Positions 25,429-61,484 are shown, counted from the first letter of the stretch. The stretch: DNA of 64,000 nt from an uncultured Gammaproteobacteria bacterium (GCA_964650355.1 CAZYTL010000003.1:1750-65749); one strand, 5' to 3'. Numbers and translations are program-made. Notes: generated from the letters alone by a model not told the origin.

Positions 25429-26994
25429 CTACCTGCACGTCCAATGATCCGGCACGTAAGCACACCACCAATATTTCAGTGTGGGTGTCGGAGTCGGCTC
25501 TGTCCCTGGCGTTGGCGTCGCTGTTGGAGAAACAGGTGTAGGAGTTAACGTCGGAGTCTGAGTCGGTGTTGGAGGAATCGGTATCGGCGTATCCGTAGGC
25601 GATACCGGGGTAGGCGTACTTGTTGGCTCTATCGGTGTCGGTGTCTGAGTCGGTGTACTCGTCGGTGGCACCGGAGTTAACGTTGGAGTCATTGTGACTG
25701 TCGGAGTTGCCGTCGGCGTCATCGTCGGTAAACCTCCACCACCTACGGCACCACAATCTACTGCCGCACATGCGTCAATCCTCCCAAAACTCCAATAACT
25801 TCCAGTTCCGGGGATCTTTTCCGCAGTTGATTCAATCTGCTGCCTTACCTGTTGATTACTCCACGCCAGATGCTCCCCCTTTACCAACCCTGCTAAGCCC
25901 GCCACCCAGGGACTAGCCATCGACGTCCCTGACAGACTTATATATCCTCCGTTATTATAAGTAGATAAAATCGCCACTCCCGGCGCCGCCACGTCTACCC
26001 AACTTCCGTAAGTCGACCAACTCGGCCTAGTATCATTTTCGTCTATCGCCCCCACCGCGATCACGTCAGAATAGTAAGCAGGATATACCGGATAACTTCT
26101 TCCATTATTCCCTGCCGCAGCCACCACCACTACTCCCCTGTTCCATGCATCCTCAATCGCTCTTTGCAACGTCCTTGACGGATAAGATCCGCCCAAACTC
26201 AAATTAATCACCTCTGCCCCGTTATCCACTGCCCAGGTGACTCCGTCCGCCACCCAAGAATAATATCCGCTTCCGTCATCATCCAACACCTTCACCGAAA
26301 ACAATCTCCCTTCATAGGCCATCCCCGCCACCCCCTTGCCATTATTAGTCATTGCTCCTGCAATTCCTGCCACATGCGTCCCGTGCCCGTTACCGTCATC
26401 GTCACCGTCGGTAGTAAAATTCGCCCTTTTAACCACCTTACTAGCCAAATCCTCATGACCCCTGTCAATTCCTGTATCCACAATCGCGATGTCTACCTGG
26501 CTTGAACCATGAGTCGCACTCCAGGCTCCGAAGGCCTTCACCTTATCTAATCCCCATTGACTACCAACTAAAGAATCATTAGGCACCTCTAACGCTTCTG
26601 CCACGTAATCCGGCTCCGCATACTCCACCCATAAACTCCTTCCCAATTCATCAGCCATCATTCTCGCCTCCGTACTTCCACTCCCCTTAATTTTCCCTCG
26701 AATCACCAAAGTATCCGCCATTTCCATCTTCTGCTCCTTCACCACCTCGATATTCCTTAACACCACCTTCTTGACCCATTCCGGCGTCCATCTTCTCCAC
26801 TTCACAATCACCCGTTCACTCTCACTCCCGGCTACCGCAACCCCCTGCCCTCCCACTTCAGCCTTCACTCCCCCATACCACCAGCCACTCATTGCCACTA
26901 ATAAACCGACTATCACTACTACCGCGAATCTGATCCTCGCCTTTCCCATATATCGATTATCCCTCACCATACTACCTTTTCCTTCCTCAGTCAA
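25429..26994 (-). CDS. Subtilisin-like serine protease (S8) with C-terminal Pro/Thr-rich linker and Cys-containing tail
   Basis: Catalytic triad contexts VDTGIDRGHEDL, HGTHVAGIAG and GTSMASPWVAGLAG. N-terminal signal/anchor. C-terminal (TPTx)n then KYWWCAYVPDHWTCR. Confidence 0.85.
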   Translation of the reverse strand: MTEEGKGSMVRDNRYMGKARIRFAVVVIVGLLVAMSGWWYGGVKAEVGGQGVAVAGSESERVIVKWRRWTPEWVKKVVLRNIEVVKEQKMEMADTLVIRGKIKGSGSTEARMMADELGRSLWVEYAEPDYVAEALEVPNDSLVGSQWGLDKVKAFGAWSATHGSSQVDIAIVDTGIDRGHEDLASKVVKRANFTTDGDDDGNGHGTHVAGIAGAMTNNGKGVAGMAYEGRLFSVKVLDDDGSGYYSWVADGVTWAVDNGAEVINLSLGGSYPSRTLQRAIEDAWNRGVVVVAAAGNNGRSYPVYPAYYSDVIAVGAIDENDTRPSWSTYGSWVDVAAPGVAILSTYNNGGYISLSGTSMASPWVAGLAGLVKGEHLAWSNQQVRQQIESTAEKIPGTGSYWSFGRIDACAAVDCGAVGGGGLPTMTPTATPTVTMTPTLTPVPPTSTPTQTPTPIEPTSTPTPVSPTDTPIPIPPTPTQTPTLTPTPVSPTATPTPGTEPTPTPTLKYWWCAYVPDHWTCR

Positions 26995-27030: not shown

Positions 27031-27465
27031 TCACCCATACGGCAAGGGCAAATTAATCTTCATAATACTGATCCCGAAAAAATTCTCTATCACCCTGATC
27101 ACGGCATAAGACACCGCCACAATCGCTAACCCCGTGAATGCCGACATAATCCTTCCCCTGGCTGCCTCCACTTTTGACTTCTCCCCTCCTGAGATAATCC
27201 ACTGAAACCCGCCCATCACCACTGACCCAAAAAACAAAATTCCTGACACATAAAGCCCCAAACTCAACAACGCCCCCGCAAACTCCCCGATACTGGTAAT
27301 CGAAAACTGCTCCACCGTCTGCCTGGGGATCTCAATCGCCCCACTCGGATTATACTGGGCCATCACTACCCCACTAGCCGCCATTCGATTTAGCTTCTTC
27401 CAGCTTTTCCAAACGAATTTCAGCTTCTTCATATACAGTTCTCCCAGTAACTTTAACCGTTTCAT
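27031..27465 (-). CDS. Small two-TM membrane protein, candidate secretion-system (VirB2/TrbC-like) pilin
   Basis: Basic N-terminus, signal-like AASGVVMAQ, then two hydrophobic helices. Shares the EIP..TVEQFSITSIGEFAGAL module with the C-terminus of the 1235-aa protein. Confidence 0.45.
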   Translation of the reverse strand: MKRLKLLGELYMKKLKFVWKSWKKLNRMAASGVVMAQYNPSGAIEIPRQTVEQFSITSIGEFAGALLSLGLYVSGILFFGSVVMGGFQWIISGGEKSKVEAARGRIMSAFTGLAIVAVSYAVIRVIENFFGISIMKINLPLPYG

Positions 27466-27502
27466 ATACTACTATATAATTTAATCCACAAAGAACAGTA
27501 CA

Positions 27503-27590
27503 TACCGATGGCCCCGATGACTATCGGTATATCCCCCTCCTTATCACTTATCGTATCGATTCTAAAAATTTCATTCGGATCATTCGGATG
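27503..27590. promoter_or_regulatory. Upstream region of the pilin-like gene: palindrome ataccgat...atcggtat (27503-27530) and tttcattcggatcattcggat motif (27569-27589) shared with the upstream region of the 1235-aa gene
   Basis: Read directly. The reverse complement contains catcggggccatcggtat, similar to catcggggcatcggtat upstream of pilB. Confidence 0.4.
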
Positions 27591-27805
27591 AATTAGTATA
27601 TTAGGATCGCCCCCAAGCCGACTTAGGGTCTATACAAACAACTCGAATTAACACCCCATGCTACCAATATAAAATGTTTAATTAACCTATCTCATTACAC
27701 CAGTCTCGACTGAGAACTCCATGAGTCGCGACTGAAACTTTCTTCAAATTAACCATCAAAAAAGGTAAAATATTCCTATCCTCAATCTCCTCATCAACCT
27801 AGCCT

Positions 27806-28051
27806 ATGACCCCAGCCCCCACTCTGCTCCACCGTCGCCAACAAATCCTCGCTAAAATTAATCGACTAAAAAAACAAATCGCCGAAGAAAGAGAAAATGA
27901 GGAAGTCTACCCCGGCCACGAAAGCACTTGGCGAGTTGATACTGAAAACCAACTCCAGGTGCTCACCACCCACCTCAACCAAATCAATCAGGTTCTCCAG
28001 CGCTCGAAACCTCAAGCATCCCAACGCACATCCCAACACAAAAACAAATAA
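27806..28051 (+). CDS. Small hypothetical protein
   Basis: 81-aa ORF in an otherwise gene-free gap. Coiled-coil-like. Confidence 0.3.
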   Translation: MTPAPTLLHRRQQILAKINRLKKQIAEERENEEVYPGHESTWRVDTENQLQVLTTHLNQINQVLQRSKPQASQRTSQHKNK

Positions 28052-28136
28052 TCACTTCAGTTAGTCCACTTCCAAGCCAGCCCCCTCATAAACTCAATCT
28101 TGTCTCTCCATCCCTCCTTATGCCATAATCTAATCA

Positions 28137-28880
28137 ATGCCCCTACTCGTCTTTCTCTTAATCATTATCTTCCTCCTCCTCACCGGTGTGCGCATCGTTG
28201 ATCAATACGAACGCGGCGTCATCCTCACCTTGGGTAAATACTCCGAAACCAAACAACCCGGCCTCAACTGGATCATCCCCATCGTCCAGCGCATGATCAA
28301 AGTCGACCTCCGCATCACTACCGTTGACATTCCCCAACAGGAAGTCATCACCAAAGATAATGTCCCCGTGGGCATCAACGCCGTCGTCTATTTCCAGGTA
28401 GAAAAAGCCGAGGACGCCATCCTTAAAATTCAAAACTATTCCTACGCCGTTTCCCAATACGCCCAGGCCGCCCTCCGCGACGTCATCGGCGGCGTAGAAC
28501 TCGACACCCTACTCACCGAACGTCACGAACTCGCCACCCAAATTAAAAACCTCGTTGATGAAGAAACCAACGCCTGGGGTATTAACGTTACCGCCATCAA
28601 AATCCAGGACATCGAACTTCCGGCCGACATGAAGCGTGCTATGGCCAAACAGGCTGAAGCCGAGCGCGGTCGTCGCGCCGTCATCATCACCGCCGAAGGC
28701 GAATTCACCGCTTCTGAAAAACTCAAACTCGCCGCCCAAAACCTGGCCGACGGCGGTATCTCCATCCGCACCCTCCAAACCATCGAATCCACTACCGCCA
28801 ACCCCGCCAACACCGTCGTCTTCGCCCTGCCTACCGAAATCCTCAAAGGCTTCAAAAACCTCATCAAAGGCCAACAGTAA
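28137..28880 (+). CDS. SPFH/band-7 (stomatin/prohibitin-like) protein
   Basis: N-terminal TM, then VRIVDQYERGVILTLGKY...KDNVPVGINAVVYFQV...AEAERGRRAVIITAEGE, typical SPFH. Confidence 0.85.
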   Translation: MPLLVFLLIIIFLLLTGVRIVDQYERGVILTLGKYSETKQPGLNWIIPIVQRMIKVDLRITTVDIPQQEVITKDNVPVGINAVVYFQVEKAEDAILKIQNYSYAVSQYAQAALRDVIGGVELDTLLTERHELATQIKNLVDEETNAWGINVTAIKIQDIELPADMKRAMAKQAEAERGRRAVIITAEGEFTASEKLKLAAQNLADGGISIRTLQTIESTTANPANTVVFALPTEILKGFKNLIKGQQ

Positions 28881-28894
28881 TAAAAACCAATTAC

Positions 28895-29410
28895 ATGACC
28901 CCCCTTAGCCCCGTCTTAATTCTTATCGGGCTACTCTCCTTAATTTCACCTCCCCTTGTATACGCCAACATGGTTGGTCTTGCCCCTCCCCATCAATTAC
29001 TTGGCTTTCTTCTGGAATTTACCTTTATTACCGGTCCACTTAATGGACTTATCGAATTTACTGTTTTGTGGCTACTTCTAAGAAAAAACCTTACCGGACA
29101 GTGGCTATTCAAAAACGCCATCATCATCAATCTCCTCACTTTCCTTCCCACTCAAAAACTTTTCACTTTCACCAGATACTCCTTATTTAATTTTGTAACT
29201 TACCGACCTTACGACTCCCTTGTTACCATCTCAATTCTATTTTTCGTTGAAATCTTCCCCGTCACCATGGAATATCTTTTCTACAAATGGCGTCTCTCCA
29301 AACCATCTAACAACAAATCTCTAGCCCATACCTCAAATAAAAAATTACTCTTATCCGTTATCTGTGCTAATCTTGTTACTACCTCCTTGGGAGTTCTGCT
29401 TTTCATCTAA
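28895..29410 (+). CDS. Hypothetical membrane protein
   Basis: 171 aa, multi-TM, downstream of the SPFH gene. Confidence 0.45.
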   Translation: MTPLSPVLILIGLLSLISPPLVYANMVGLAPPHQLLGFLLEFTFITGPLNGLIEFTVLWLLLRKNLTGQWLFKNAIIINLLTFLPTQKLFTFTRYSLFNFVTYRPYDSLVTISILFFVEIFPVTMEYLFYKWRLSKPSNNKSLAHTSNKKLLLSVICANLVTTSLGVLLFI

Positions 29411-29449
29411 CCCAATACTACATCAATTTAAGCGTTTCACCATTCAATC

Positions 29450-29872
29450 ATGCCGCCATCTAAACACTCTTTCCTTGTCCCTCAGCACACCTCACCCGAA
29501 GAAATCACGCGCCAGGTAAAACAACAAGCTAGAATTTCTTACCTCATCTTCATCTTGCTCTTCTTCTTTATCACTTTGATTGTAGAATTTTTTGTTAAAC
29601 CTCAATTCACGACGCTTTTATCAGACGATCAACAAGCCTTTATCCTTAAATACAGTTTATATCCTCCAATAATTATACTTCTTTTCTGCTCAGTTATCAG
29701 CTATTACTATACCCGAAACCCCAAATACACCAGCCAGCCAGTCAAAGATAACCTTATAAGAGTCAGTTCACAAAAAACCAAATTACTTCTACCAATTATT
29801 ATCTTAATTCTATTACTTTCAACTGCATATCAACTTTTCACCATCATCACATCCGCCTACATTATTAACTAA
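29450..29872 (+). CDS. Hypothetical membrane protein
   Basis: 140 aa, three to four TM segments. Confidence 0.45.
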   Translation: MPPSKHSFLVPQHTSPEEITRQVKQQARISYLIFILLFFFITLIVEFFVKPQFTTLLSDDQQAFILKYSLYPPIIILLFCSVISYYYTRNPKYTSQPVKDNLIRVSSQKTKLLLPIIILILLLSTAYQLFTIITSAYIIN

Positions 29873-29900
29873 ATCTCACCTCCATGCATAATTCACCTTC

Positions 29901-30419
29901 TTAATTTGTCCCGCTCAATCGTGGCATTTTCTTAAACACCTTCGGGCTAAACCCCAAAGCTTTAGCTGCCTCCTCTGCTGCCTGCAAATTTGCCGCCCCA
30001 TCCTCCACTATTACATCTATCCGTGCCAACTGTTTAAAAATCTGCGTCCAAACCGCCCTCTCCTTTTTGCTCCCATAATCAGACATATCAAATATTTTCT
30101 TTGCTACATTTCCTAAACCTAACCTTTCTAATATCAACCTTGAAGTCGCCACCAAAGCTGTTGAAACCACCACCAGCTCATAATCTTCCAAACTAGCCCT
30201 CAAATTCTCCACAGCAAACTTATTTGAATAAATCTTTAACCTCCCAGACCGGACCGCCTCCAGTTCACCTTCTAACTGCGACTTTATATCTGCATCTGCC
30301 TTTCCCAACTTAAACATTGCCTTCTCAAACACCTTCTCGTGCTTATTAGGATCAAATCCAGGATCATAACTATACAACACCCCGCCCATATCCGACACCA
30401 ACACCTTCATCAAGCCCAT
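29901..30419 (-). CDS. HAD-like fold hydrolase (motif I degenerate)
   Basis: LVSDMGGVL (DxG instead of DxD), VVVST, SKKE and EDGAANL resemble HAD motifs II-IV. Confidence 0.45.
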   Translation of the reverse strand: MGLMKVLVSDMGGVLYSYDPGFDPNKHEKVFEKAMFKLGKADADIKSQLEGELEAVRSGRLKIYSNKFAVENLRASLEDYELVVVSTALVATSRLILERLGLGNVAKKIFDMSDYGSKKERAVWTQIFKQLARIDVIVEDGAANLQAAEEAAKALGFSPKVFKKMPRLSGTN

Positions 30420-30426
30420 TATACAC

Positions 30427-30753
30427 TCAAAAACTGTGTCCTAATTCACTTAATTTCAGCCACACTCGCACGTCTCCCAACTCAGGAAACTCCTTCATCA
30501 AAAAATCCCGTAACTCATTAGCGATTTCATCCTCTCTTTCAACTCGCTCCTTAAATGCATGCACAGACACCTCCAACTCTACCTCGCCAATCATTTGTCC
30601 ACTTACTTTAATAAACCTGATACTAATTTCCTTTTCCGTCAATCTAATCTCTCCGCAACTCAGACGTTCTGCTGCAAAAGGGCGTAACTTAAGAACAATC
30701 TCCTTTTCCTTTAATCGGTCTTTCGCATACACATTAATCGTCGGCATATCCAA
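30427..30753 (-). CDS. Hypothetical protein, possibly tautomerase-superfamily-like (Pro1 if translation starts at the second Met)
   Basis: MDMPTINVY...; weak. Confidence 0.3.
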   Translation of the reverse strand: MDMPTINVYAKDRLKEKEIVLKLRPFAAERLSCGEIRLTEKEISIRFIKVSGQMIGEVELEVSVHAFKERVEREDEIANELRDFLMKEFPELGDVRVWLKLSELGHSF

Positions 30754-30861
30754 ATCTTACCACAAACCGATCACCATCCTGCTCAGCAAAATCAACAGAA
30801 CATGACCCTTATTATCAGTTTACATCTGTCCTTTTATCTGATTTTATCCGTCGAGTCTACT

Positions 30862-31659
30862 TCACACCTGCATCAAAAACTCCTCCGCCAACTTCCCCGC
30901 CTCTCCGTTCGCCCGGTAAAAATTCTTCCACACCACCACAATATCCGCTCCGTTAAACACCGCCGATTGAATCTCCCGCGGCTTATCCCCCCCTGCCACC
31001 GACACCATCACATTAAACGCCCCCTTAATCTTATTAATCATCTGAATCGGCAACGGCTTGTCAGAAAACTCCTCCTCATCCACCCCCCGGTGCAAAATCA
31101 CCACCTGCGGCAACTGCTTCAACTTTCTCAGCACCTTGTAAGGCTGCTCCACATTCATCATATCCACCATTGCATCCACCCCGTGCTCCTCGCACTCAGC
31201 CATAAACGCATCCAAAGATTCCACCGGCGCCATCCCCAAAGCCACCGCCCCACTCGCCCCCGCCTCTGCCGCAATCTGCACCTCAGTCGACCCCCGATCC
31301 ATCATCTTCAAATCCGCCACCACATAAGCTTGTGCCATTTCCTGACTCAGCCCTCCCTCATTCCTCATCCCCGGACTCTTCATCCCCGACTTTAACAACA
31401 TCCCCAATATCCCAGTGAACTGAACACTTTCTTCCTTATCATAAACCAGATTCTGTCCCATCAAATGTGTCCGATACCAATACTTAATCCTCCTAATCCC
31501 TTCCGCTCCATAGCGCTTAATCAATGGCGTCCCCGCCTCTACAATAATCCGCTCGCTTCTAGGCAACTGACTGATAATCCGTCGTGCATCGCTCAACGTC
31601 CCGTTCAGCGCCACCTGCAAATACCTTTTCTTCGGATCCAATAATGAATTCCTTTTCAC
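30862..31659 (-). CDS. KGPDC/OMP-decarboxylase-superfamily protein (3-hexulose-6-phosphate synthase-like)
   Basis: LQVALNGTLSDARRII...IIVEAGTPLIKRYG matches the HPS/KGPDC N-terminal signature, but with N replacing the catalytic D. About 70 aa inserted. Confidence 0.65.
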   Translation of the reverse strand: MKRNSLLDPKKRYLQVALNGTLSDARRIISQLPRSERIIVEAGTPLIKRYGAEGIRRIKYWYRTHLMGQNLVYDKEESVQFTGILGMLLKSGMKSPGMRNEGGLSQEMAQAYVVADLKMMDRGSTEVQIAAEAGASGAVALGMAPVESLDAFMAECEEHGVDAMVDMMNVEQPYKVLRKLKQLPQVVILHRGVDEEEFSDKPLPIQMINKIKGAFNVMVSVAGGDKPREIQSAVFNGADIVVVWKNFYRANGEAGKLAEEFLMQV

Positions 31660-31739
31660 TAATTACATTCTACGATCTCCATGGATTCTTCACAATCAGC
31701 ACCCACCGAAAGTCGACCCCACCCACATCCGCACCCTTT

Positions 31740-32819
31740 TTAACTCACCAACACATACCTCGCCGCTTTCGTCCTCCCTTTCTTCCTCACCAACTTCTTC
31801 CTCATCAGATCAGTCAAATCACGCAACAACGTATCCTCGCTCACTTTAGGTATCAATTCCTTGGCATCGCGCATATACAACTCCTCATGCTCCTTCATAT
31901 ACTCCACCAGCTTAATCTGTCTGTCTGACAACGCAATCTGCTTCCCCACCTTATTCTTCAACCTCTCATCCATCGACAATCTCCTCACCTTTTCCTTCAC
32001 CCTGGTTAACTCCACCGCCAGAGCTTGAGTAAAATACTCTAGCCAACTTGTTAAATCCCTTTCTTCCAGCTCTTCAGTTTGGTTCGACACCGCTTGCAAA
32101 GCACTATAATAAGCCGCTACATCCTGGTCAAAATATTCTTCCAAACTGAACAGCCTCCGGATATCATACCCCTCCGCCCACAACACCAGTGTCGCCATCG
32201 CCCGTGCCACCCGACCGTTACCCTCCACAAACGGATGAATCGCCACCAGAAAATAATGAGTAATTGCCGCCCTCAAAACCGGATGAACCTTCAGACTCTG
32301 CCTATCATTCAACCACAATAATAATCCTTCCACCAAATACGGCACCTCCACCGCCGGCGGCGCCTTGTAACTCGCCTCCCCGCTTTGCACACTCCGCACG
32401 ATCACCTGCGCTTCTCTGAACTTTCCTACCCCATGATCTACCACCCTCTCCACCGTCAACTGATGCATCCTCAATAACTGTTCTTCCGTGTACTCAAACG
32501 GCATCTCCTTGTCCTGTCGCAAAGCTTCCAACCGGTCAATATACTTCAGCACCTCCCGATAATTTAACACCTCCTGCACATCCCTCTCCCGCGCCACCAC
32601 CTCTTTGCCTTCTAGCACCTCTCTCGCCTGATCCAGACTTAGGGCATTCCCCTCAATCGCTGTCCCGTAATGCACCGTCTTCACCACTGCCTCCTCCACA
32701 AACTGCTTTTCCCACGCCGGCACAATCGGCGCATTCACAATCACCTCACGGCACGCCTCAATAATTCCGATATTACCCAAAATGTCATTGGTAATTTGAA
32801 ATTTAGGTAAATACATCAA
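31740..32819 (-). CDS. Fic-family protein (AMPylase-like) with C-terminal wHTH
   Basis: Fic motif HPFVEGNGRVARA. N-terminal GTAIEGN resembles the inhibitory (S/T)xxxE(G/N) helix with S/T replaced by G. Confidence 0.85.
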   Translation of the reverse strand: MMYLPKFQITNDILGNIGIIEACREVIVNAPIVPAWEKQFVEEAVVKTVHYGTAIEGNALSLDQAREVLEGKEVVARERDVQEVLNYREVLKYIDRLEALRQDKEMPFEYTEEQLLRMHQLTVERVVDHGVGKFREAQVIVRSVQSGEASYKAPPAVEVPYLVEGLLLWLNDRQSLKVHPVLRAAITHYFLVAIHPFVEGNGRVARAMATLVLWAEGYDIRRLFSLEEYFDQDVAAYYSALQAVSNQTEELEERDLTSWLEYFTQALAVELTRVKEKVRRLSMDERLKNKVGKQIALSDRQIKLVEYMKEHEELYMRDAKELIPKVSEDTLLRDLTDLMRKKLVRKKGRTKAARYVLVS

Positions 32820-32820
32820 A

Positions 32821-33486
32821 CTAATATCGCAGCGAAGATAACCACAAAATCAAAAACCCCACCCCAGCAATTATCAATATTCCTACTGGTATCATAAGTA
32901 AAGCCTGCCACCAACTCAACCTGCGATCATATTTGGCTACCTTTTCACTAAAAGAATCCATAAACCATTGTGCTTCCCTTAAATTAGGCATAAAATCTAC
33001 TCCTCGACTCTTACAAAACCCTTCTACCACTTCTAATATTGAAGCACAATTCTTAACCAAAATCCCTCTTTCCATTAACTGGGTCCTCACAAATGACGAA
33101 CTCACAATTAAATATTTCGTATCATCACTTACCTCCCGATACAAAACTGAAGTAATTTGCGGCCAGTTTGGTGACCAAAATGAACTCTTTTCATTAAAAA
33201 ACGCTAAAGTAAAATTATTCTCCCCATGGCTATCTACCACTCCCGATCCCAATTTATCATATACCGGTTTAGGTATTAAAAATCTCTCCTCTCGGGGTCG
33301 CTCTTCTTCAGGTAACAACCTATGCCAACTTTTCAACAGCTCATATAAATCTCTACCCTGCACCTCGACCGGCAACTTAATAATTACAGATCGATAATTT
33401 GCATTTCTCTCCGCCCAATCCTCCATCCCCGTTAGTGCTCGGGCAGCAAATTCCTCCACTACAAAATTTAATAAAGGATTAGGCAT
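32821..33486 (-). CDS. Hypothetical protein with C-terminal TM anchor, translationally coupled upstream of fic
   Basis: Its stop codon is 1 nt from the fic start codon. 221 aa. Confidence 0.45.
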   Translation of the reverse strand: MPNPLLNFVVEEFAARALTGMEDWAERNANYRSVIIKLPVEVQGRDLYELLKSWHRLLPEEERPREERFLIPKPVYDKLGSGVVDSHGENNFTLAFFNEKSSFWSPNWPQITSVLYREVSDDTKYLIVSSSFVRTQLMERGILVKNCASILEVVEGFCKSRGVDFMPNLREAQWFMDSFSEKVAKYDRRLSWWQALLMIPVGILIIAGVGFLILWLSSLRY

Positions 33487-33594
33487 ATCCCCTCCACTCT
33501 ATCATAAATTTCCGCACAATTCACGCACTCATTACGTTTAGCAATCAGCAATTTCGGCCTCTGGCCGAAATTTCCACTCCAAAATCTTCACTCC

Positions 33595-34761
33595 TTATTT
33601 TTGATTTTTGCTATTTGATATTTCTAATAGGTATCCTCTTCCTCTTACTGTCCTCAAGTCATACCCGCTTCCCAGTAACTTCTTCCTCAAACGTGAAATC
33701 GCCTGATCCACGGCCTCTTCCGACACTCCTTCAGGATTGTCCCCTGGCCAACCCGCTTCCACCAACTCTTCCCTCTCGCATACTCCCCCTGCCCTATCCT
33801 TTAAACACTTCCACAACCGATACTCAATCTGTGTCAACCTGTTCTCAACCTTAGCCTCTCCGATCTGAGCCTCGCTCGTCTCCTTTCCCTCGCCCTCTGT
33901 CCACGTCTCAGCTCTATCTCTGACAAACCTCTCCACCGCCTCTGACCCAATCACACATTTTTGTTCTCCATTTGACAAAGCTGATAAACTCCTCAGATCA
34001 GCTTTGTCATCCTGAGCGCTCCTAAAACGATGTGACGTTTTAGGGCGTCGAAGGATCTCCTTTACTACTCCCCACCCCCACAACCCCTTATTCATCACCT
34101 CAACACCATCCCTGACGAACTCCACCAACTGCTTTCGTTGTTCTTCGTTCAACCCCCGCCAAATCATCTTCAACATTCCTCTTAGCCTGGCAGAACTTTC
34201 CACCTCCTCCCTGCCTTCCACCAACCATGACTTAACCAATCCCGGAATTCCTCCTGAAAACAAATAAATCTCTTCCCTTTCCTCCTTATTCACCTTCATT
34301 CCTAACCTCCTGGCCACGTTATCAATCACCGCATCTGTTTCTTCTCTCCTACATACCGGAAAATATAACTTTGATTCTGTCACCAACTCATAAAAATTTC
34401 CCATCCTCTCCGCTTCCCGGCTCAAATCACACCTCGTACTCGTCACCACCAAATAAGTCACATGATACTTCCGTTCATCCCTGATCGCCCGCAAATGATT
34501 AAACACCTTCGGTTCAGCCATCTTTAATAACGATTCAAAATGATCTATCACCACCGTCGTTGGTTTCTTCCTGTCAACCTCGCTCATTTCCAGTAATTTA
34601 AACGGCACCAGATTTGCATCCCGCTTCACCAACTTCCTCCCCTTGATCTCTAATTCTCTAATCATCCGGGTCATCCCCCACCCCGGCAAACCGCATAAAC
34701 GCACTGATAACCCGGCATCTAATTTCTCCACCACTGACTTCATTACTTGGCTTCTAGACAT
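33595..34761 (-). CDS. Degenerate P-loop NTPase-like N-domain + C-terminal OmpR-type wHTH (paralog family with 23888 and 43461)
   Basis: LCGLPGWGMTRM (Walker-A-like), VVIDHFE (Walker-B-like) and C-terminal ISRLRKKL...VRGRGYLL. Carries palindromic element copy C in-frame. Confidence 0.6.
   Translation of the reverse strand: MSRSQVMKSVVEKLDAGLSVRLCGLPGWGMTRMIRELEIKGRKLVKRDANLVPFKLLEMSEVDRKKPTTVVIDHFESLLKMAEPKVFNHLRAIRDERKYHVTYLVVTSTRCDLSREAERMGNFYELVTESKLYFPVCRREETDAVIDNVARRLGMKVNKEEREEIYLFSGGIPGLVKSWLVEGREEVESSARLRGMLKMIWRGLNEEQRKQLVEFVRDGVEVMNKGLWGWGVVKEILRRPKTSHRFRSAQDDKADLRSLSALSNGEQKCVIGSEAVERFVRDRAETWTEGEGKETSEAQIGEAKVENRLTQIEYRLWKCLKDRAGGVCEREELVEAGWPGDNPEGVSEEAVDQAISRLRKKLLGSGYDLRTVRGRGYLLEISNSKNQK
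33972..34058. repeat. Double-hairpin palindromic element copy C (in-frame in the 33595..34761 gene, translated as ILRRPKTSHRFRSAQDDKADLRSLSALSN)
   Basis: Hairpin 1 gacaaagctgat/atcagctttgtc, hairpin 2 cctaaaacg-atgtga-cgttttagg. Stem changes relative to copies A and B are compensatory. Confidence 0.8.
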
Positions 34762-34907
34762 CCCCTATATTATAAAACTTCCCCACAATTTTGTCAGCTT
34801 CTTGTCAGGCAAACTTGACTCATAGGTTATACTATATATGCCAAGGATTCACCCCAACTACCCGGCCATTAGTGCGGCCGGGATGTCTGTGGTGACTTCT
34901 TTTTAAA

Positions 34908-35324
34908 AAGAGGAGAAACCGGAAATCAAATATCAAACCAAAGGAGGCCCAAATGGCCAAGAGATTGACAGTCCTCGTCATCGTGGCCATCGTATCCTTG
35001 ATGGCCGCAGTCCCCGCATTTGCTCAAGGCCCCACTACTACGTGGAGGACCGCAGGCACCACACAACGGTGCGTCGGGTCGTGGTGTGTGACGCACCACG
35101 AATGGGAGAACATGGGAGGCCCGGGACCCAACCGATGGGTGGACACCACCGTCGACACCCCATACGGCAGCCGCAGCTTCAGCAGAGGGCTGCCCAACGA
35201 GCCATCCGCCCCTCCGGGGCAACTGGAGATTAACATCCAATACAATTTGCACAGCAGAGAGGGCAACCCCGGAATCACCATCCGGGGACCCCGGCAGTAA
35301 GAGGAGTCACCCGGTTTCTCCTCT
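34908..35324. other. GC-rich (~60% GC) cassette bounded by 13-bp perfect inverted repeats GAGGAGAAACCGG / CCGGTTTCTCCTC
   Basis: Base composition and codon usage differ sharply from the flanks and show no C>G skew. A hairpin cccggcc-attagtgc-ggccggg sits at 34861-34882 just outside. Confidence 0.5.
34953..35300 (+). CDS. Small secreted protein (signal peptide, two Cys), GC-rich codon usage
   Basis: Strong SD aaaggagg 6 nt upstream. MAKRLTVLVIVAIVSLMAAVPAFA|QG signal peptide. Mature region CVGSWCVTHHEW. Confidence 0.55.
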   Translation: MAKRLTVLVIVAIVSLMAAVPAFAQGPTTTWRTAGTTQRCVGSWCVTHHEWENMGGPGPNRWVDTTVDTPYGSRSFSRGLPNEPSAPPGQLEINIQYNLHSREGNPGITIRGPRQ

Positions 35325-35438
35325 CCTCTATCACCCGCCCATTTTAGTCCCCTCTTTTGTCATCCAATTGTTAACTTCCCGTCCAGCAAAGATCTACCTC
35401 TTCCCATTACACTAAAAGTAATTTTTCTTCTCGAGTCC

Positions 35439-35936
35439 ATGCCTCCCAACACTAATTCTCCACCAGCCTCAATCTCATCCCTTACCCAACTTCAACACCG
35501 ACTTCAAGACCTCAAATTTCAAAAACGGCCCCAACTCTTAACCCTCCTTGCTCAAAACCGACATCAAAGAAATATCAACCATATCACCGACCACGTCACC
35601 TTGGCCACCGAACTTGAACTCCTTGATTACCGCATCTCCCAGCTCGAAGCCCTCCTCTCTCGCGCGTCTCTTTCAGCCCTTTCCACCGAACTCCCCCACG
35701 CTAACCAAGTCGATCTCGGCTCCACCGTCATCCTCCAATCAATCTCTACCCAACACCAACGCACCGTCCACCTCGTTCCCGACTGGGAAATCAACCCCGC
35801 TCAAGGCAAAATCTCCTTATCTTCCCCTCTGGGACAATCTCTCCTAGGTAAACAAGTCAATCACCTTATCCAGGTGTCCACCCCCTCAGGCCAAATCCAA
35901 TATCAAATCATCCAAATTTCTCAGACATTTCCCTAA
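35439..35936 (+). CDS. greA: Transcription elongation factor GreA
   Basis: C-terminal ISLSSPLGQSLLGKQVNHLIQVSTPSGQIQYQIIQI matches the GreA/B FKBP-like domain signature, preceded by a coiled-coil N-domain. Confidence 0.8.
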   Translation: MPPNTNSPPASISSLTQLQHRLQDLKFQKRPQLLTLLAQNRHQRNINHITDHVTLATELELLDYRISQLEALLSRASLSALSTELPHANQVDLGSTVILQSISTQHQRTVHLVPDWEINPAQGKISLSSPLGQSLLGKQVNHLIQVSTPSGQIQYQIIQISQTFP

Positions 35937-36106
35937 ACCATGGACCTCATCCTAAAAACCATTCTCGATTTACTTCATAAAATAACCCAATTTATCGATC
36001 CTCAGCTCGGCTATCCCCCCACATCACAACTCAGCTACGGAGAACACTAACAGCCCAAATTAACTAATTACTGATACTCCTCAAGCACAAAAATCTCAGC
36101 TCTCTT

Positions 36107-37237
36107 CTACAACTTCACCACCTTTCCCTTCACTCCTTCTACCAAATGCTCGTCCGCCGTGGTCATCACCGTCTGCTGGTCATTCACCACCTGCATCACC
36201 ACCTTCCTATGCTCATGATCCAACTCCGAAAAAATATCATCCAAAAGTAACACGGGTTTCTCTCCTGTCACCTTCTCCATAAATGCCAACTGCCCCAACT
36301 TCAGCCACAATACCGCCATCCGCTGCTGGCCACGAGAACCGTAAGTGGCAAGGTCAATAGTTCCAAAGCTACGAGGTTTCGAAGTTTCGAAGTCATTATG
36401 GTCACTTTCACCTTGAAACTTAACTATCATGTCATCTCTGTGCGGTCCTACTAGCGTCACCCCAGCCGCTACCTCTTCTCTCCCATACTGTTTCAGCCTC
36501 TGCTCACTAATCACACTGCTGTCATATACTACTTTATATTGTCCGTGAATCTTGAATCTTGCCTGCCCGTCCTCCTGGCGGGAATCTTGAATCTTCTCCC
36601 TACTATTCAAAAACTCAATCAACTCTCTCCGGTATCTCGTTATCACCTGCCCCTCTTTAATCAATAATCGATCCCAAAAGTACAACTGCGACCGACCGGC
36701 AACCCCTTCCTTGATTGCCTGCAATACCTTATTCCTCCTCCGCACACCTTTCTCATAAGACAATAAAGCCCGATAATAATCCGGATAAATCTGACTCAAT
36801 ACCTCATCCAAAAAATTCCTCCTTCGACTCGGGCTCCCTTCAATCAACCTCATATCTCCAGGCCCAAACATTACCACCCGCAAATTCCCCGCAAACGTTC
36901 TTAACTGTCGCCGCACCCCATTCACCATCAATGACTTTCTCGGCACCTTCTTACCTTGCACCTCTCCCCGCGTCACTACCACCTCAAGCTCAGTACTCTT
37001 ATCCCCAAACTCCTCTTGAATCTCTCCCTTCACCCTTCCCACTTCCTTCCCCCACTTCACCATCTCCTCTATCCTCTCCGCTCTGAAACTCTTCCCTGTC
37101 GCCAACAAATAAATCGCCTCCATCAAATTTGTCTTCCCGCTCCCGTTAGCTCCCACCACCACCGTCATCCGCGGCAACTCCAACACAAAATCCTCATGAT
37201 TCCTAAAATCAGCTAACCACAGAGTCTTCAACTTCAC
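36107..37237 (-). CDS. recF: DNA replication and repair protein RecF
   Basis: VVGANGSGKTNLMEAIYLLATGKSFR. Contains in-frame short repeats (gtttcgaa x2 at 36377-36392; gaatctt direct repeats flanking a 22-nt insert at 36547-36596). Confidence 0.9.
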   Translation of the reverse strand: MKLKTLWLADFRNHEDFVLELPRMTVVVGANGSGKTNLMEAIYLLATGKSFRAERIEEMVKWGKEVGRVKGEIQEEFGDKSTELEVVVTRGEVQGKKVPRKSLMVNGVRRQLRTFAGNLRVVMFGPGDMRLIEGSPSRRRNFLDEVLSQIYPDYYRALLSYEKGVRRRNKVLQAIKEGVAGRSQLYFWDRLLIKEGQVITRYRRELIEFLNSREKIQDSRQEDGQARFKIHGQYKVVYDSSVISEQRLKQYGREEVAAGVTLVGPHRDDMIVKFQGESDHNDFETSKPRSFGTIDLATYGSRGQQRMAVLWLKLGQLAFMEKVTGEKPVLLLDDIFSELDHEHRKVVMQVVNDQQTVMTTADEHLVEGVKGKVVKL

Positions 37238-37364
37238 AGTCCAATTTTACACTAAATCCAAATCATACGAATTCCAACTAGACCCTTCTCACCTTTTCTT
37301 CACCAACTCCCCCTTGCCTTCCCATATTTTTAAAATATAAACTTAAATTAAGCAAACGCCTTTC

Positions 37365-37385
37365 ATATTCGGATCATTCGTATCG
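37365..37385. promoter_or_regulatory. tttcatattcggatcattcgtatcg motif about 100 bp upstream of the 1235-aa gene, shared with 27569-27589
   Basis: 17-20 nt identical between the upstream regions of two genes that also share a C-terminal protein module. Confidence 0.4.
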
Positions 37386-37483
37386 CATCAAGCCTGCTTA
37401 GTAGCGATCCTAATCCACGAATACATCCTAATGATCCTAATACAACTTTCAATTCCTAAGACAATAAACCAACCACCCCATCC

Positions 37484-40400
37484 ATGCCCTCAGAATTCTC
37501 GACCCTCACCGATCTTGCCCTCAGCCATGGTATTAAACATTCTGAACTCATTGATCAGATCCACGAAGCCATCCTGGTAGAATTTCTCAAAAAATACCCC
37601 GAACAAGCCAAAAACGCTTCCGTATTAGTCGACGCTCAAACCGGTAAAGCCACCATCTTATCTAATAAAAAAGACATCACCCCGCCTGAATTTGCTCCTC
37701 ATGCAGAAAGTATCGCCCGCCAAGTCATCCTCAGTCACCTGAAAAAAGCCGACACCTCTCCTCCTCCACCGCCAGCCGAAAAAATCGCTCCCCAGCCTCG
37801 CATCCTCTCTCAGCATCCCGACTCTCATCCCGGCAAGTCCGTCTCTTCCTGGCTCGCCCGACTTATTTTCTGGGGCTACAATGGTTTCTTCCTCTTTATG
37901 CTCTTCATCTTTATTTGGGGCCTCTTCACCAAAGACCTCCGCACCAGCTTTTTAGACCAACTCCAGCAAATCAGCCTTTACCAAAGTCTCCTCCTCCTCG
38001 TCCTCGTCGCTACCCCCGCAACCAGCATCTATCTGGCCCTCAAAAACCACCTTTCCCGTCAACCACACCAGCTCGCCCAGCTATTTTTCTTCCTCGAAGT
38101 TCCCCTCATCGGTCTCACCTTCATCTTTCTCTCCTTTGATCAAGCCATTCCCATCATCAAACTCTTTGCCCTGCTCGCCCTTCTCATCCCCATTTTATTC
38201 TTCGGCTACGTCAAACAAATCAAAGTCGACAATCTCCCCAAAACCTATCTTCTCACCGCCATCATCCAAATCTTACTTCTCATTGTTGGCTACTTCACCC
38301 TCCTTTATTCTTTCTTCTCCCCCATTTTCTTAGGCTACCTCGCCAAATCTATCTTTTCAGGCATCGTTTCCGACTTTACGGATTATATCTTTACCAACTT
38401 CGTTAGCATCTCCACCCTTTGGGAAATCCTCTATTTCCTCATCATCATTTCTCTCGCCATTTTTGGCCTCATTATTGTTACCCTCCTCATCTTCCTTCCC
38501 TACCTCCTCACTTATCTGTTTGCCAAAATGTTTCTCCAATACCGCACCCGGCTTCTGAAATATGTAGACGAACAACGCACCTCCGTCTTTATTGGCCTTA
38601 CCACCTTGGCCATGCTCATCCTTACCATCGGTCTTTCTTACCAAGCAGACATCAGTCCCTATCTCAGCCAGCTTGAACAACTCTCCACCGCCACCACCTT
38701 CGAGGACAAACTCCACATCGCCCAACAACTCCAGCCTCATCAGTCTGCAATTAAACAAACCCTCCAGGACATGAACAACTATGGCCGACGTTATCCTTTT
38801 CATAAAAACGACCGCTATCTGGCTAATGCTTACCAATCCGTTTTTCGTCTTGACCAAACCACCGCCAACCACCTCCAAAGCCTCTTTCACACCCTCGCCT
38901 ATCCCTTTGTCTACTGGGGACCTACCGATAGCTACCAACTCCGCCAAAATTTCACCTACCTCTTCGGCAATCCCGACGCCCCCACTCCCAGTCAACCTAA
39001 ACCCAATGTTGAGCTAGTATCCAGAGACGTCCAGGCCCAAACCGCTTATCAAGATCAACTCGCTACCATCACCGTTACCGAAGAATACACTAATAAAACC
39101 TACCAACAACAACAAGTCATCTACGAATTCTCTCTCCCCAACTCAGCCGTCATCACCGATCTCCGACTCGGTCCTAACCTGGAATTTCCCGGCGTCATCG
39201 CCCCCAAAGGCGCTGCCAGTGCCACCTATGAACGCGAACTTCAACGCCGCCGCGATCCTGCATTACTGGAACAAGTCGGCCCTCGTCAATACCGCCTCCG
39301 CGTCTTCCCCATCCCTGCCAAAAACGACCGCACCACCCTCCAGGGAAAAAACCAAAAAGTCCAGTTCACCTACATAGTTAACGCTACCTCACAGGGCTAC
39401 ACCTTACCCAACTACTCCAAGACTCAAAACATCAATCCCGATCCTGCCGACTACACCGTCAGCCTAAACCACCAATCCGTCAGTGCCTTCATCTCAGATG
39501 CCTACATCCGTGATCCCCAAACCAATGGTCCATCCACCGATCCTTGCCAGGTCACCCAAACCCAAACCACCAAAACCCTTCTCGAAAACATCTCCGTTTC
39601 CTTAGTCCCCCATTCTTCTCAATCCCAATTAACCAACAACTTTGACTGTCAAGAAGATGAAGCACTCAAATTCCCATCATTGCTCACCAATCAACGTATC
39701 GCCCTTCTCTACGATGTCTCCCGTGGTAACAAAAACGCTGAAGAGTACGAATTATTCTTTAAAGCTCTTGATGCTCACACCCAACTCCTCACCCAGAACA
39801 CTTTTGATCTCTATCTCTTCAACGATCAACTTAGTCAACCAATTAAGCTCACTAACTCCAATCTCACTACCACCACCAGTGGCCCTAACCTCGTCTACTT
39901 TGGTACTAGTGATCTCAACAAAGCCTTAAAAGAATTCTCAGGTGTTTACGATCTGGCTATTATCATCACCAATCAAACGACAGCTTTTGCCAACTTAAAT
40001 CTCCCCTCCCAGTTCAACTTCCCCATCTATCTCATCCACACCGACATTATTCCTCCCTACAACCAAACGTTTACTAACTACCTCATCCAACACCAGGGCT
40101 ATGTCGCCAATAATCTGTCTGATGCTCTCGACCACTTCGTCCTCACCCAAAACCTCCAACCTTCAAACACCCAAGTCTTGACCGTCTCCCCTTACTGGAG
40201 CCTCACCGTTCCCGCCAATTCTTTACCAGCCATCACTAAATTACCAGAATTTACCATCACCCAAACTCCCCTTCCCTCTCCCACACCTCGAATAAACAAT
40301 AACCTAGTCTGCGGTACCTACTTCCGTCGCAAAACCTCCAATACCATGGTCCAGGGAAACTGGACAGATGACCCCCAATACACCATTTCCAAACAAAAAT

Positions 40401-41191
40401 GTCAGGAATATATGCAAACTAAATTCCTCAACAAACTCTATTGTGATATGTACGATGCCTCCGTGGTATCAGTTTATCTATTAAACAAAAATCGCTACAC
40501 TAGTACCTTCCCCGCTAATGGCTTTAGTGATAATGAATTTGTCTACAGCCAAGAATGCTTAACCGCCCCCTTAACTACCCCCACCCCGACCCTCACTCCA
40601 GCTACTCCTAAAACTCCTCCCGTTGACTCTTTAGCAGCCATCTTCAACCGTGCCTATCTCTCCGACCAAATCTCCCAATATCAAGGCGATCTTACCAAAA
40701 ACCTCGCTTTCTTAGATGCCACCAATAATTTCGCCCTCCAAGCCAATCTGGTCACCCCTTACTCTTCCCTCCTTGCCCTCGTTAACGAAACCCAAAGAAA
40801 CTGGCTGCAAAGAGAATCCCAATCCTACAATCGCTATGAAGAACAACCTCCTCAGCCCACCCCAGTCCCCATCTTTAGAGAATTCGAATCATCTGATGTC
40901 TTCTCTCCCTCTATCGGTATCGGCAATTCACTCTTTGGTACTAGCATGAAATCAGCTCCCGCCCCCCTGATGATGGGTGGCGGCGGTGGTGAATTCGGCG
41001 GCGTCAGCGGCGGCGGATTGGAAATTCCCACCACTACCGTTCAAGCCTTTTCCATCACCAGTGTGGGTGAGTTCATGGGCGGCCTCTTCATTGCCGTTAA
41101 CGTCCTCCTCCTCGGCGGCGGCTTCCTGGTCTATCTCATCATCCACCTTAAAAACCGCAAAAAAACAACCGCCATCAAACAAAATAAGTAA
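37484..41191 (+). CDS. Giant membrane/surface protein: cytoplasmic N-terminus, about 9-10 TM helices, ~750-aa extracytoplasmic domain, PT-rich linker, Gly-rich region and C-terminal TM anchor with basic tail
   Basis: Topology read from hydrophobicity. The C-terminal EIPTTTVQAFSITSVGEFMGGLFIAVNVLLLGGGFLVYLIIHLKNRKK resembles sorting-signal architecture and matches the pilin-like protein module. Confidence 0.7.
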   Translation: MPSEFSTLTDLALSHGIKHSELIDQIHEAILVEFLKKYPEQAKNASVLVDAQTGKATILSNKKDITPPEFAPHAESIARQVILSHLKKADTSPPPPPAEKIAPQPRILSQHPDSHPGKSVSSWLARLIFWGYNGFFLFMLFIFIWGLFTKDLRTSFLDQLQQISLYQSLLLLVLVATPATSIYLALKNHLSRQPHQLAQLFFFLEVPLIGLTFIFLSFDQAIPIIKLFALLALLIPILFFGYVKQIKVDNLPKTYLLTAIIQILLLIVGYFTLLYSFFSPIFLGYLAKSIFSGIVSDFTDYIFTNFVSISTLWEILYFLIIISLAIFGLIIVTLLIFLPYLLTYLFAKMFLQYRTRLLKYVDEQRTSVFIGLTTLAMLILTIGLSYQADISPYLSQLEQLSTATTFEDKLHIAQQLQPHQSAIKQTLQDMNNYGRRYPFHKNDRYLANAYQSVFRLDQTTANHLQSLFHTLAYPFVYWGPTDSYQLRQNFTYLFGNPDAPTPSQPKPNVELVSRDVQAQTAYQDQLATITVTEEYTNKTYQQQQVIYEFSLPNSAVITDLRLGPNLEFPGVIAPKGAASATYERELQRRRDPALLEQVGPRQYRLRVFPIPAKNDRTTLQGKNQKVQFTYIVNATSQGYTLPNYSKTQNINPDPADYTVSLNHQSVSAFISDAYIRDPQTNGPSTDPCQVTQTQTTKTLLENISVSLVPHSSQSQLTNNFDCQEDEALKFPSLLTNQRIALLYDVSRGNKNAEEYELFFKALDAHTQLLTQNTFDLYLFNDQLSQPIKLTNSNLTTTTSGPNLVYFGTSDLNKALKEFSGVYDLAIIITNQTTAFANLNLPSQFNFPIYLIHTDIIPPYNQTFTNYLIQHQGYVANNLSDALDHFVLTQNLQPSNTQVLTVSPYWSLTVPANSLPAITKLPEFTITQTPLPSPTPRINNNLVCGTYFRRKTSNTMVQGNWTDDPQYTISKQKCQEYMQTKFLNKLYCDMYDASVVSVYLLNKNRYTSTFPANGFSDNEFVYSQECLTAPLTTPTPTLTPATPKTPPVDSLAAIFNRAYLSDQISQYQGDLTKNLAFLDATNNFALQANLVTPYSSLLALVNETQRNWLQRESQSYNRYEEQPPQPTPVPIFREFESSDVFSPSIGIGNSLFGTSMKSAPAPLMMGGGGGEFGGVSGGGLEIPTTTVQAFSITSVGEFMGGLFIAVNVLLLGGGFLVYLIIHLKNRKKTTAIKQNK

Positions 41192-61110: not shown

Positions 61111-61200
61111 TAAGATATATTATACAACAAGCCGGGGTTCAAATTAGTATTGACTTTCAAATAAGTTGAACGTAAAATAAACCTCAGTTTAACAAACACG

Positions 61201-61470
61201 TGCGGGGTAGTGTACGGCTGCACGGAGGGCTAGTAGTATGGGCCCCTTAGGGAGTAATCTCTATTGAATAACCTGGCTATATCGGTAGACAGCCCGATGG
61301 ACATCGGGCCAATATCCGAGGGAAGTCGACCTTATTATCTGGTTTGACCCCGTAGAGACTACACGCCGGGCCCCCGATAAACATCGGGGTGATGATATAG
61401 TCCGACACTCTGAGTAATCAGAGATTACAGATCAGCATAATCCTCCAGACCGGGTTCAACCCCCGGCCCC
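61201..61470 (+). ncRNA. ssrA: Structured RNA candidate with tRNA-like 3' domain (tmRNA-like): 5' tgcgggg pairs with 3' ccccgca; T-arm ccggg-TTCAACC-cccgg
   Basis: Acceptor/T-arm architecture parallels the E. coli tmRNA 3' end (gacgcgggttcaactcccgcc-acceptor). A gaataacctggct segment resembles taataacctgctt at the tag stop. Followed by an intrinsic terminator. No convincing tag ORF found. Confidence 0.35.
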
Positions 61471-61484
61471 GCAACATAAAAAGA

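Follow-up and report, generated by a model that had tools for sequence, protein, structure and literature searches.

In a 64,000-nucleotide stretch of bacterial DNA (CAZYTL010000003.1:1750-65749; hereafter the window, whose own numbering is used throughout), two genes about 10 kb apart encode a small VirB2-like pilin and a 1235-residue membrane protein, which we call the giant. We found that the giant carries in its tail, just outside its last membrane helix, a patch of about 25 residues that is homologous to the mature N-terminal segment of the pilin family, and that the regions upstream of the two genes share a repeat element found nowhere else in the window. The homologues of both proteins point to the pilin family as the source of the patch, and the patch bears signs of selection. 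The peptide copy and the common upstream array together suggest that the giant works together with the pilin. The genes and the two copies of the segment are as follows.

27031-27465, minus strand: VirB2-like pilin gene (PF18895, T4SS_pilin family); open reading frame (ORF) of 144 residues, assigned by hidden Markov model (HMM), phmmer, hydropathy and AlphaFold2
27268-27342, minus strand: shared segment in the pilin, G42-L66 of the 144-residue ORF, GAIEIPRQTVEQFSITSIGEFAGAL; BLASTP; conserved in the pilin subclade
37484-41191, plus strand: giant membrane protein gene; ORF of 1235 residues; Pfam, NCBIfam, hydropathy and homologues
41012-41086, plus strand: pilin-derived patch in the giant, G1177-L1201, GGLEIPTTTVQAFSITSVGEFMGGL; BLASTP, motif scan and pilin-family HMM

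A pilin segment in the tail of the giant protein

Pilin residues 44-87 aligned with giant residues 1179-1214 (BLASTP, E=2e-7, 21/45 identical), and in the core of the match, IEIPRQTVEQFSITSIGEFAGAL against LEIPTTTVQAFSITSVGEFMGGL, 15/23 residues were identical, or 16/27 when the preceding G.. was counted. In the pilin the segment comprises a stretch of the mature N-terminal ectodomain and the beginning of helix 1, and in the giant the patch is followed by a helix typical of the giant's family, LFIAVNVLLLGGGFLVYLII, and then by the basic tail HLKNRKK.... The likeness is centred on the extracytoplasmic stretch next to the membrane, and the membrane helices of the two proteins differ. The topology is alike, with the segment outside, then a helix, then positive charges inside (hydropathy, AlphaFold2). 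No third copy of the peptide was found in a six-frame motif scan of the window, nor by phmmer among 1251 stop-to-stop ORFs from the window and the first loci, a search that gave E=1.3e-4 for the pair itself. A preliminary description of this DNA had reported both ORFs, a specific peptide shared beside a membrane helix, and a pilin-like small protein with two helices, and each of these observations was borne out. It had also called the peptide a C-terminal membrane module; the shared segment is real, but in the pilin it is N-terminal, lying just before helix 1, and it is the mature N-terminus of the pilin family that was copied into the giant's tail.

The consensus of the mature N-terminus in the pilin subclade was G.[LI].[IL]P...V..FSITS[IVL]GEF.G. 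The segment was present in pilins from other samples (P0009, LLLPDSITEQFSITSLGEFLGAL; P0011, LSIPTGAVSIFSVTSVGMFVGGV; P0008, IAIPSSILENWAITSIGEFVGAL) and in pilins on further loci (L007, LFIPTEAVAGFSITSLGEFIGAI; L009, LSIPANAVAAFSITSVGEFVGAV). The EIP...FSITS.GEF segment was absent in 6/6 homologues of the giant (P0003-P0005 and L017-L019); in all of them a hydrophobic helix and a final basic cluster come after a stretch that is rich in glycine or variable. The pilin-family HMM matched the tail of the window's giant in the correct register and left the tails of P0003-P0005 unmatched. Because the motif is kept in the pilins of other organisms, is absent from the six homologues of the giant, and is matched by the HMM in the window's giant only, the patch, judged from these sequences, passed from pilin to giant, with the pilin family as the source and the giant of this lineage as the recipient.

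Third codon positions were 51% G and 11% C in the pilin gene and 50% C and 6% G in the giant gene, and the same codon was used at 5/16 identical residues of the two segments, where 3.7 would be expected at full equilibration of synonymous sites. Since synonymous sites are saturated between these copies on opposite, strand-biased strands, the transfer was not recent. About 15 columns are conserved in the pilin subclade, and all of them are kept in the giant, including G, E and V residues, which are depleted in plus-strand proteins. The differences in the patch (R to T, Q to T, E to Q and Q to A) fall in columns that vary among the pilins and run along the compositional drift of the strand. That every pilin-conserved column survives while the synonymous sites are saturated indicates that the giant's patch is under purifying selection.

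The strand asymmetry is itself extreme throughout the window (1-64000; GC skew about -0.45, with C 21146 and G 8154; AT skew near 0). A GC skew near -0.45 is unusually strong for a bacterial chromosome. Proteins of the plus strand have half the G, E and V, and roughly twice the T, Q and P, of those of the minus strand. The strong skew is common to the contigs of the giant's closest homologues (L001 and L002); the Gottesmanbacteria, Shapirobacteria and Woesebacteria loci are without it.

By its sequence the small protein is an ordinary member of a known family. It scored 21.2-21.5 bits against PF18895, below the gathering cut-off of 26.6 (Pfam). An exhaustive phmmer search of 1.84 billion representatives returned 6129 cluster representatives at E<=1e-3 (best 9e-27), and PF18895 was matched by 25/25 sequences in the alignment of the pilin with its closest single-domain relatives (best 5e-11). 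The family signature comprises a leader, I.IP...F.IT..G.F and helix 1, followed by WGG..W.TSGGDK.K.E.AR.RI, helix 2, FFGI and then ...P.P[YF]. The hydrophobic helices of the pilin are residues 66-84 and 108-126 of the 144-residue ORF (hydropathy). Its true start is likely the ATG at 27432, giving 133 residues, because a GGGAG Shine-Dalgarno-like sequence stands before that ATG; the NCBI-sourced protein record P0001 uses this start too. In 133-residue numbering the AlphaFold2 model is a helical hairpin (H48-80/H85-119) with a mean predicted local distance difference test score of 80.7, and above 90 in the hairpin. Comparison of the model with the PDB by Foldseek returned generic helical hairpins only (best E=2.3), which was uninformative, as one would expect of so simple a hairpin, and a PDB sequence search with the pilin profile gave nothing relevant. 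The signal peptide is weak, and the gene is solitary, being the sole pilin-like ORF within the window.

VirB2-like pilins of the PF18895 family are widespread in Patescibacteria and were essential in the single organism tested (PMC12102498). Their genes are often in arrays, especially in Microgenomatia, and lie near virB4 in 1135/1948 assemblies (PMC12102498), so that a neighbourhood of type IV secretion system (T4SS) genes is not obligatory. The same work reports that no T4SS adhesin has been detected in Patescibacteria (PMC12102498). Among the loci that we fetched, L007 is an example of a VirB2-like pilin array.

From its N-terminus the giant consists of a weakly NusA_N-like domain, helices and a VIT ectodomain; a Gly-rich linker then leads to the pilin-like patch, which is followed by a membrane helix and a basic tail. 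Its first stretch (residues 7-63; 37502-37672) has a weak likeness to NusA_N (PF08529, 19.5 bits, below cut-off), about seven hydrophobic helices lie across residues 124-384 and one at the extreme C-terminus, before HLKNRKK (hydropathy), and the VIT domain occupies residues 515-617 (Pfam, E=2.2e-15; E=0.005 for this region against the VIT domain of ITIH4 by sequence). The top NCBIfam match was to TIGR02921, 'PEP-CTERM family integral membrane protein', over residues 522-893 (E=4.6e-49), with a score of 167.4 bits, under the curated cut-off of 200. Further matches were to MSEP-CTERM TIGR04286, XrtN-system VIT protein TIGR04477 and marine sortase-target TIGR03788, and each of the four families has a dedicated C-terminal sorting signal as its defining feature. 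From these matches we classify the giant as a subfamily related to TIGR02921 yet distinct from it, a divergent member of a known architecture.

The same giant protein is also encoded on a separate Logan assembly contig (L003). Two homologues come from two JGI metagenomes (P0003, 44% identity; P0004, 39%) and bear the JGI name 'putative PEP-CTERM system integral membrane protein'. The others are from a Logan assembly (P0005, 37%) and from metagenome-assembled genomes of Gottesmanbacteria, Shapirobacteria and Woesebacteria (L017-L019, 30-39%). Because homologues sit in genomes of these three groups, the source organism is probably an ultra-small patescibacterium of the Microgenomatia, as judged from protein homologues rather than marker genes. 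The NusA_N-like cytoplasmic N-terminus (in NusA, the RNA-polymerase-binding domain) is kept in P0003-P0005. A Cys-containing insert of about 110 residues (residues ~915-1025; 40220-40560), which lies between Pro/Thr-rich linkers, is present also in P0003 and absent in P0004 and P0005.

The repeat array upstream of both genes

The elements upstream of the two genes, and the genes that diverge from them, are as follows.

27545-27645, minus strand: pilin upstream repeat element; core 27573-27610, four ATCCKAAT-type units at about 9-bp spacing
37362-37462, plus strand: giant upstream repeat element; core 37404-37441, four units, 43 nt from the ATG
37256-37272, plus strand: two further degenerate units (ATCCAAATCATACGAAT) with 3 mismatches, in the giant's intergenic region beside the recF start
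27806-28051, plus strand: ORF of 81 residues, divergent from the pilin gene (gene layout)
36107-37237, minus strand: recF, divergent from the giant gene (gene layout)

Both upstream elements are built on an octamer unit, ATCCKAAT (reverse complement ATTMGGAT), and the two regions can be aligned over about 90 nt. The distance from the core of the pilin array to the start codon is 108 nt if the ATG at 27465 is taken and 141 nt if the one at 27432 is. Relative to the pilin and giant genes the two cores are in the same orientation and co-linear, following the pattern GCGATCCTAAT-N5-AAT-NN-ATCCKAATGATCCKAAT. This pattern had 0 matches in 100 shuffles, a post hoc count in that the pattern was taken from these two sequences; as an independent measure of the likeness, blastn gave two high-scoring segment pairs with E=0.018 each against the whole window. 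No third copy of the element was found in the 64 kb (nhmmer, blastn), and 10/21 window matches to ATT[CA]G[GT]AT fell within the roughly 590 nt of these two intergenic regions together.

The giant's upstream region also has two inverted units at 37367-37383, and these contain the 13-mer (TTCGGATCATTCG) that the preliminary description had taken as the shared cis element. The 13-mer is exact at 27574-27586 and at 37368-37380, the second site having been placed about 3 nt off, and it is on the plus strand at both. Because the pilin and giant genes lie on opposite strands, its two copies are opposite in orientation relative to the genes. A shared element unique in the window does exist, but the true same-orientation homology is the neighbouring four-unit array and not the 13-mer.

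ATCCKAAT arrays were absent upstream of the giant's homologues and on every other locus fetched, and on the homologue contigs (L001, L002 and L017-L019) neither a pilin gene within 10 kb nor a pilin-like tail nor such an array was found. The contigs of the closest pilins (L020-L023) were too short to reveal a giant gene beside the pilin.

A structured RNA or riboswitch was considered for the element and rejected: the consensus fold had -2.65 kcal/mol with no covariation, and there was no Rfam match at E<=1. Given that no conserved RNA fold or Rfam match was found, a protein-binding DNA array is more likely, and the sequences are most simply explained if the ATCCKAAT array is a multi-site operator for one DNA-binding regulator. 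Two other candidates were set aside. GATC (Dam-type) sites were not specially clustered (223 observed vs 198 expected), and a replication origin or DnaA-box cluster beside recF was rejected, the GC skew never changing sign in the window and the units matching the DnaA box at only 6/9 positions (manual comparison).

Three Trans_reg_C proteins (C-terminal, OmpR-type), encoded at 23888-24907, 33595-34761 and 43461-44501, all on the minus strand, are candidate binders of the arrays; the protein at 33595-34761 also had a sub-threshold match to an nSTAND1 NTPase. Two of the three genes adjoin genes for secreted proteases (S8 and M6-like). Between the array and the pilin start codon lies an 8-bp inverted repeat (27497-27530; ATACCGAT ... 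ATCGGTAT), which could form a hairpin in the pilin 5' leader.

How the pilin and the giant may be linked

A specific and selected peptide, a common cis element and a pilin-like small protein make a functional link, with possible co-regulation, a reasonable reading. The mechanism that we favour, tentatively and at somewhat less than an even chance, is that the giant's tail holds a docking segment that mimics the pilin. In this lineage only, about 25 residues just outside the giant's last membrane helix were replaced by a copy of the mature N-terminal segment of the pilin subclade, and purifying selection has since preserved that copy. The patch would make the giant's membrane-proximal stalk resemble the exposed N-terminal end of a pilin subunit, and the giant could therefore make the pilin's lateral contact, either to adjacent pilins or to an assembly factor that handles pilins. 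We infer that such physical docking would tie the giant, as a large putative adhesin, to the pilus base or the pool of pilins, and that the shared ATCCKAAT operator would give co-expression of the pilin and the giant.

Several findings weigh against this mechanism. The giant's tail has a single helix only and cannot be a complete pilin subunit, the AlphaFold2 confidence across the shared segment in the pilin was only about 65-68, and the vWA-like part of the giant's ectodomain is predicted from family matches only. No virB4, virB6, virB3 or other T4SS machinery was recognised among the window ORFs scanned (Pfam, NCBIfam), about a dozen of which match no family model. The best match to the giant's tail among 151 pilin-family proteins was the co-resident pilin (BLOSUM62 score 78, 15/23), but pilins of other organisms were nearly as close (P0011, score 71, 14/23; L009, 15/23), so that specific co-evolution of the tail with the resident pilin is not demonstrated; the patch has been seen in one organism only. 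On the DNA side, symmetry gives the arrays one orientation relative to the divergent genes as well, at a distance of 196 nt for the 81-residue ORF and 167 nt for recF, and the sole consensus promoter match in the recF-giant spacer points to recF (minus strand, TTGAAA-16-TAGGAT) and overlaps the units.

These last points would fit a DNA element that serves the divergent genes, or acts in both directions, the co-regulation of the pilin and the giant being coincidental. Such an arrangement is possible, though we doubt it; it concerns the DNA part alone and is compatible with the conclusions on the peptide. The array distances are more similar for the divergent genes (196 and 167 nt) than for the pilin and the giant (108-141 and 43 nt). 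However, recF and the 81-residue ORF have no known mutual relation, while the peptide independently links the pilin and the giant, and the sigma-70-like consensus scan behind the promoter match is weak evidence (9/12 positions). Common regulation, as the preliminary description had proposed, is made possible by an array upstream of both genes, but the array is equally well placed for the 81-residue ORF and recF.

The shared segment could also be a processing or sorting site, in which G.[LI].[IL]P...FSITS.GEF would be recognised by a pilin-maturing enzyme (such as a dedicated peptidase, a cyclase or a neighbouring secreted protease). The giant's ectodomain would then be shed by cleavage, or ligated, between GGG and LEIP, and the tail would be a new kind of C-terminal sorting signal. 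The TIGR02921, TIGR04286, TIGR04477 and TIGR03788 relatives, all with such signals, speak for this, as does the three-part layout of the giant's tail, with the FSITSVGEF motif, a hydrophobic helix and the basic HLKNRKK. In the pilins the motif stands at a variable distance after the signal-peptide region and is conserved family-wide (I.IP...IT..G). Proteases lie close by: on the strand of the pilin gene, 36 nt downstream of it, lies a gene for a secreted or membrane-anchored S8 subtilase (25429-26994, minus strand; Pfam Peptidase_S8, 4.8e-57), and a gene for an M6-like protease adjoins the giant gene. The subtilase and pilin genes are a possible operon, and the subtilase is only a candidate partner.

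Unlike true sorting signals, however, the orthologous tails have no conserved motif, and the pilin's segment is not C-terminal. No PEP-CTERM, LPXTG or other sorting-domain model matched the giant's last 163 residues at E<=1 (NCBIfam), the EIP of the tail stands 17 residues ahead of the helix and does not adjoin it, and none of the window's ORFs, about a dozen of which match no family model, was recognised as a sortase, exosortase or rhombosortase. A scan of GTDB species representatives, among which the source genome apparently is not included, gave 25 pattern matches to [QA]FSITS[VIL]GE, 0 of them confirmed by tblastn. In JGI metagenomes a degenerate DNA pattern (FSITS[hydrophobic]GEF.G) matched 13 loci without a second giant-type tail; these were two ordinary pilins (L007 and L009) and 11 short 'psdFTITS[LF]GEF' reading frames. 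Because the six homologues of the giant lack the motif and no other such tail appeared in the GTDB and JGI scans, the shared segment, as far as its sequence distribution tells, does not behave as a general sorting signal. We regard a processing or sorting site as unlikely.

The dedicated sorting pathway of the preliminary description is not supported, on the same counts, together with the lack of any recognised T4SS in the window. The HExxH metalloprotease that had been suggested as a processing partner (M6-like, with Reprolysin_5 and TIGR03296 matches) finds no support in that role: its gene is simply convergent with the giant gene, and around the giant's homologues in L001 and L002 none of the called genes, most of them unannotated, has a peptidase Pfam family.

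Other observations were made in these searches. Frames of the type '...(v/i/e)(p/s)sdFTITS[LF]GEF.G...' recur on many unrelated contigs (L004-L006, L008, L010 and L013-L016), and they are probably an out-of-frame or antisense reading of a highly conserved sequence, unrelated to the patch. A word-index protein search with the small protein found only itself; with a 5-sequence alignment of the module it gave 72 candidates, none at E<=10, and missed both query proteins too, and was hence uninformative. The S8 subtilase has a long linker rich in Pro and Thr, and its C-terminal tail (LKYWWCAYVPDHWTCR) is short and contains Cys and Trp.

Finally, there may be no functional coupling at all, the patch being what remains of an old illegitimate recombination or gene conversion between a pilin gene and the 3' end of the giant gene, tolerated in a permissive linker, and the repeats a small mobile or repetitive intergenic element with roughly inverted ends that came to lie beside both genes by chance. 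Within the giant family no part varies more than the juxtamembrane region, which so tolerates replacement, the repeats have an inverted-repeat-like build with units both ways around AAGYCNGCTT, as in MITE- or REP-like elements, and our view of the genome is limited to 64 kb. But all pilin-conserved columns survive strong compositional drift over saturated synonymous sites, and a relic should have decayed like the tails of the homologues. In addition, two independent lineage-specific features link the same two of about 60 window genes, and by a rough estimate the chance of two random insertions flanking exactly this pair is about 1e-3. We consider a neutral relic the least probable of these explanations.

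If the docking mechanism holds, the giant could be the first candidate adhesin with a physical connection to a Patescibacteria T4SS, through a 25-residue pilin-mimicking patch that recruits it to the VirB2-like pilus or the pool of pilins, and co-switched by the ATCCKAAT operator, a proposal that we consider doubtful at this stage. Patescibacteria live attached to host cells, and the giant is a concrete, testable candidate for an adhesin tied to their VirB2-like pilin system. A half-pilin used as a C-terminal anchor would be a new way for cargo to be attached to a conjugative-type pilin. Members of a VIT family with a dedicated sorting signal would, moreover, be seen to exchange that C-terminal signal for one derived from a pilin. 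Even without a functional link, this would remain a clear case of an exon-like patch passed between unrelated membrane proteins.

Other features of the window and comparison with known systems

Elsewhere in the window, a group I intron lies at 61222-61424 (Rfam, 56 bits) within 61200-61476 (plus strand). Its flanks resemble tRNA halves: on the 5' side there is an acceptor, gcggggt..., and on the 3' side a T-arm, ccgggttcaacccccgg, with ccccgca after it. ARAGORN did not call this putative tRNA. Group I introns have been described in tRNA genes of Patescibacteria (preprint 10.1101/2025.07.03.662931). The window also encodes an ATP-dependent DNA ligase with domains of archaeal/eukaryotic type (21884-23878, minus strand) and a protein with an AEP-like primase domain (54053-54877, plus strand).

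What is new here is the chimeric tail and the double link, by peptide and by cis element, between the pilin and giant genes. We found no precedent for a half-pilin anchor, the longer members of PF18895 being tandem multi-pilin fusions, with no adhesin-pilin fusions among them. The small protein resembles the VirB2-like pilins of Patescibacteria in its homology, its helix-loop-helix hairpin with a WGG...SGG(D/E)K loop, and its N-terminal I.IP...IT..G and C-terminal P.P[YF] motifs; it differs from them in its score below the gathering cut-off, its solitary gene, its weak signal peptide and the absence of a recognised T4SS gene within 64 kb. The giant shares with the TIGR02921-type VIT proteins a multi-pass N-terminal membrane region, the VIT domain, a large ectodomain, and a terminal helix with a basic cluster. 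It differs in having no PEP, MSEP or LPXTG motif and no exosortase or sortase recognised nearby, and in having the pilin-derived segment in its tail and an extra NusA_N-like domain at its N-terminus.

In sortase-assembled pili of Gram-positive bacteria, the tip adhesins and the pilins carry the same C-terminal sorting signal. The likeness to our case is that a large adhesin and a small pilin, often co-regulated, have a common short membrane-proximal signature by a helix and a basic tail; here, however, there is no LPXTG motif and no recognised sortase, and the pilin's shared segment is N-terminal. PilB of Streptococcus sanguinis is a modular type IV pilin composed of a pilin module and a vWA module (PMC8179133). 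By analogy of function only, the giant would likewise join an adhesive module to a pilin-type segment and present it by or with a filament. Yet type IV pilins are a class unrelated to the VirB2-like pilins, and PilB has a complete pilin module at its N-terminus, whereas the giant has only the first 25 or so pilin residues, at its C-terminus, in addition to a polytopic N-terminal anchor. We take PilB and the sortase-assembled pili as the nearest functional analogies to the giant and its pilin, neither of them homologous.

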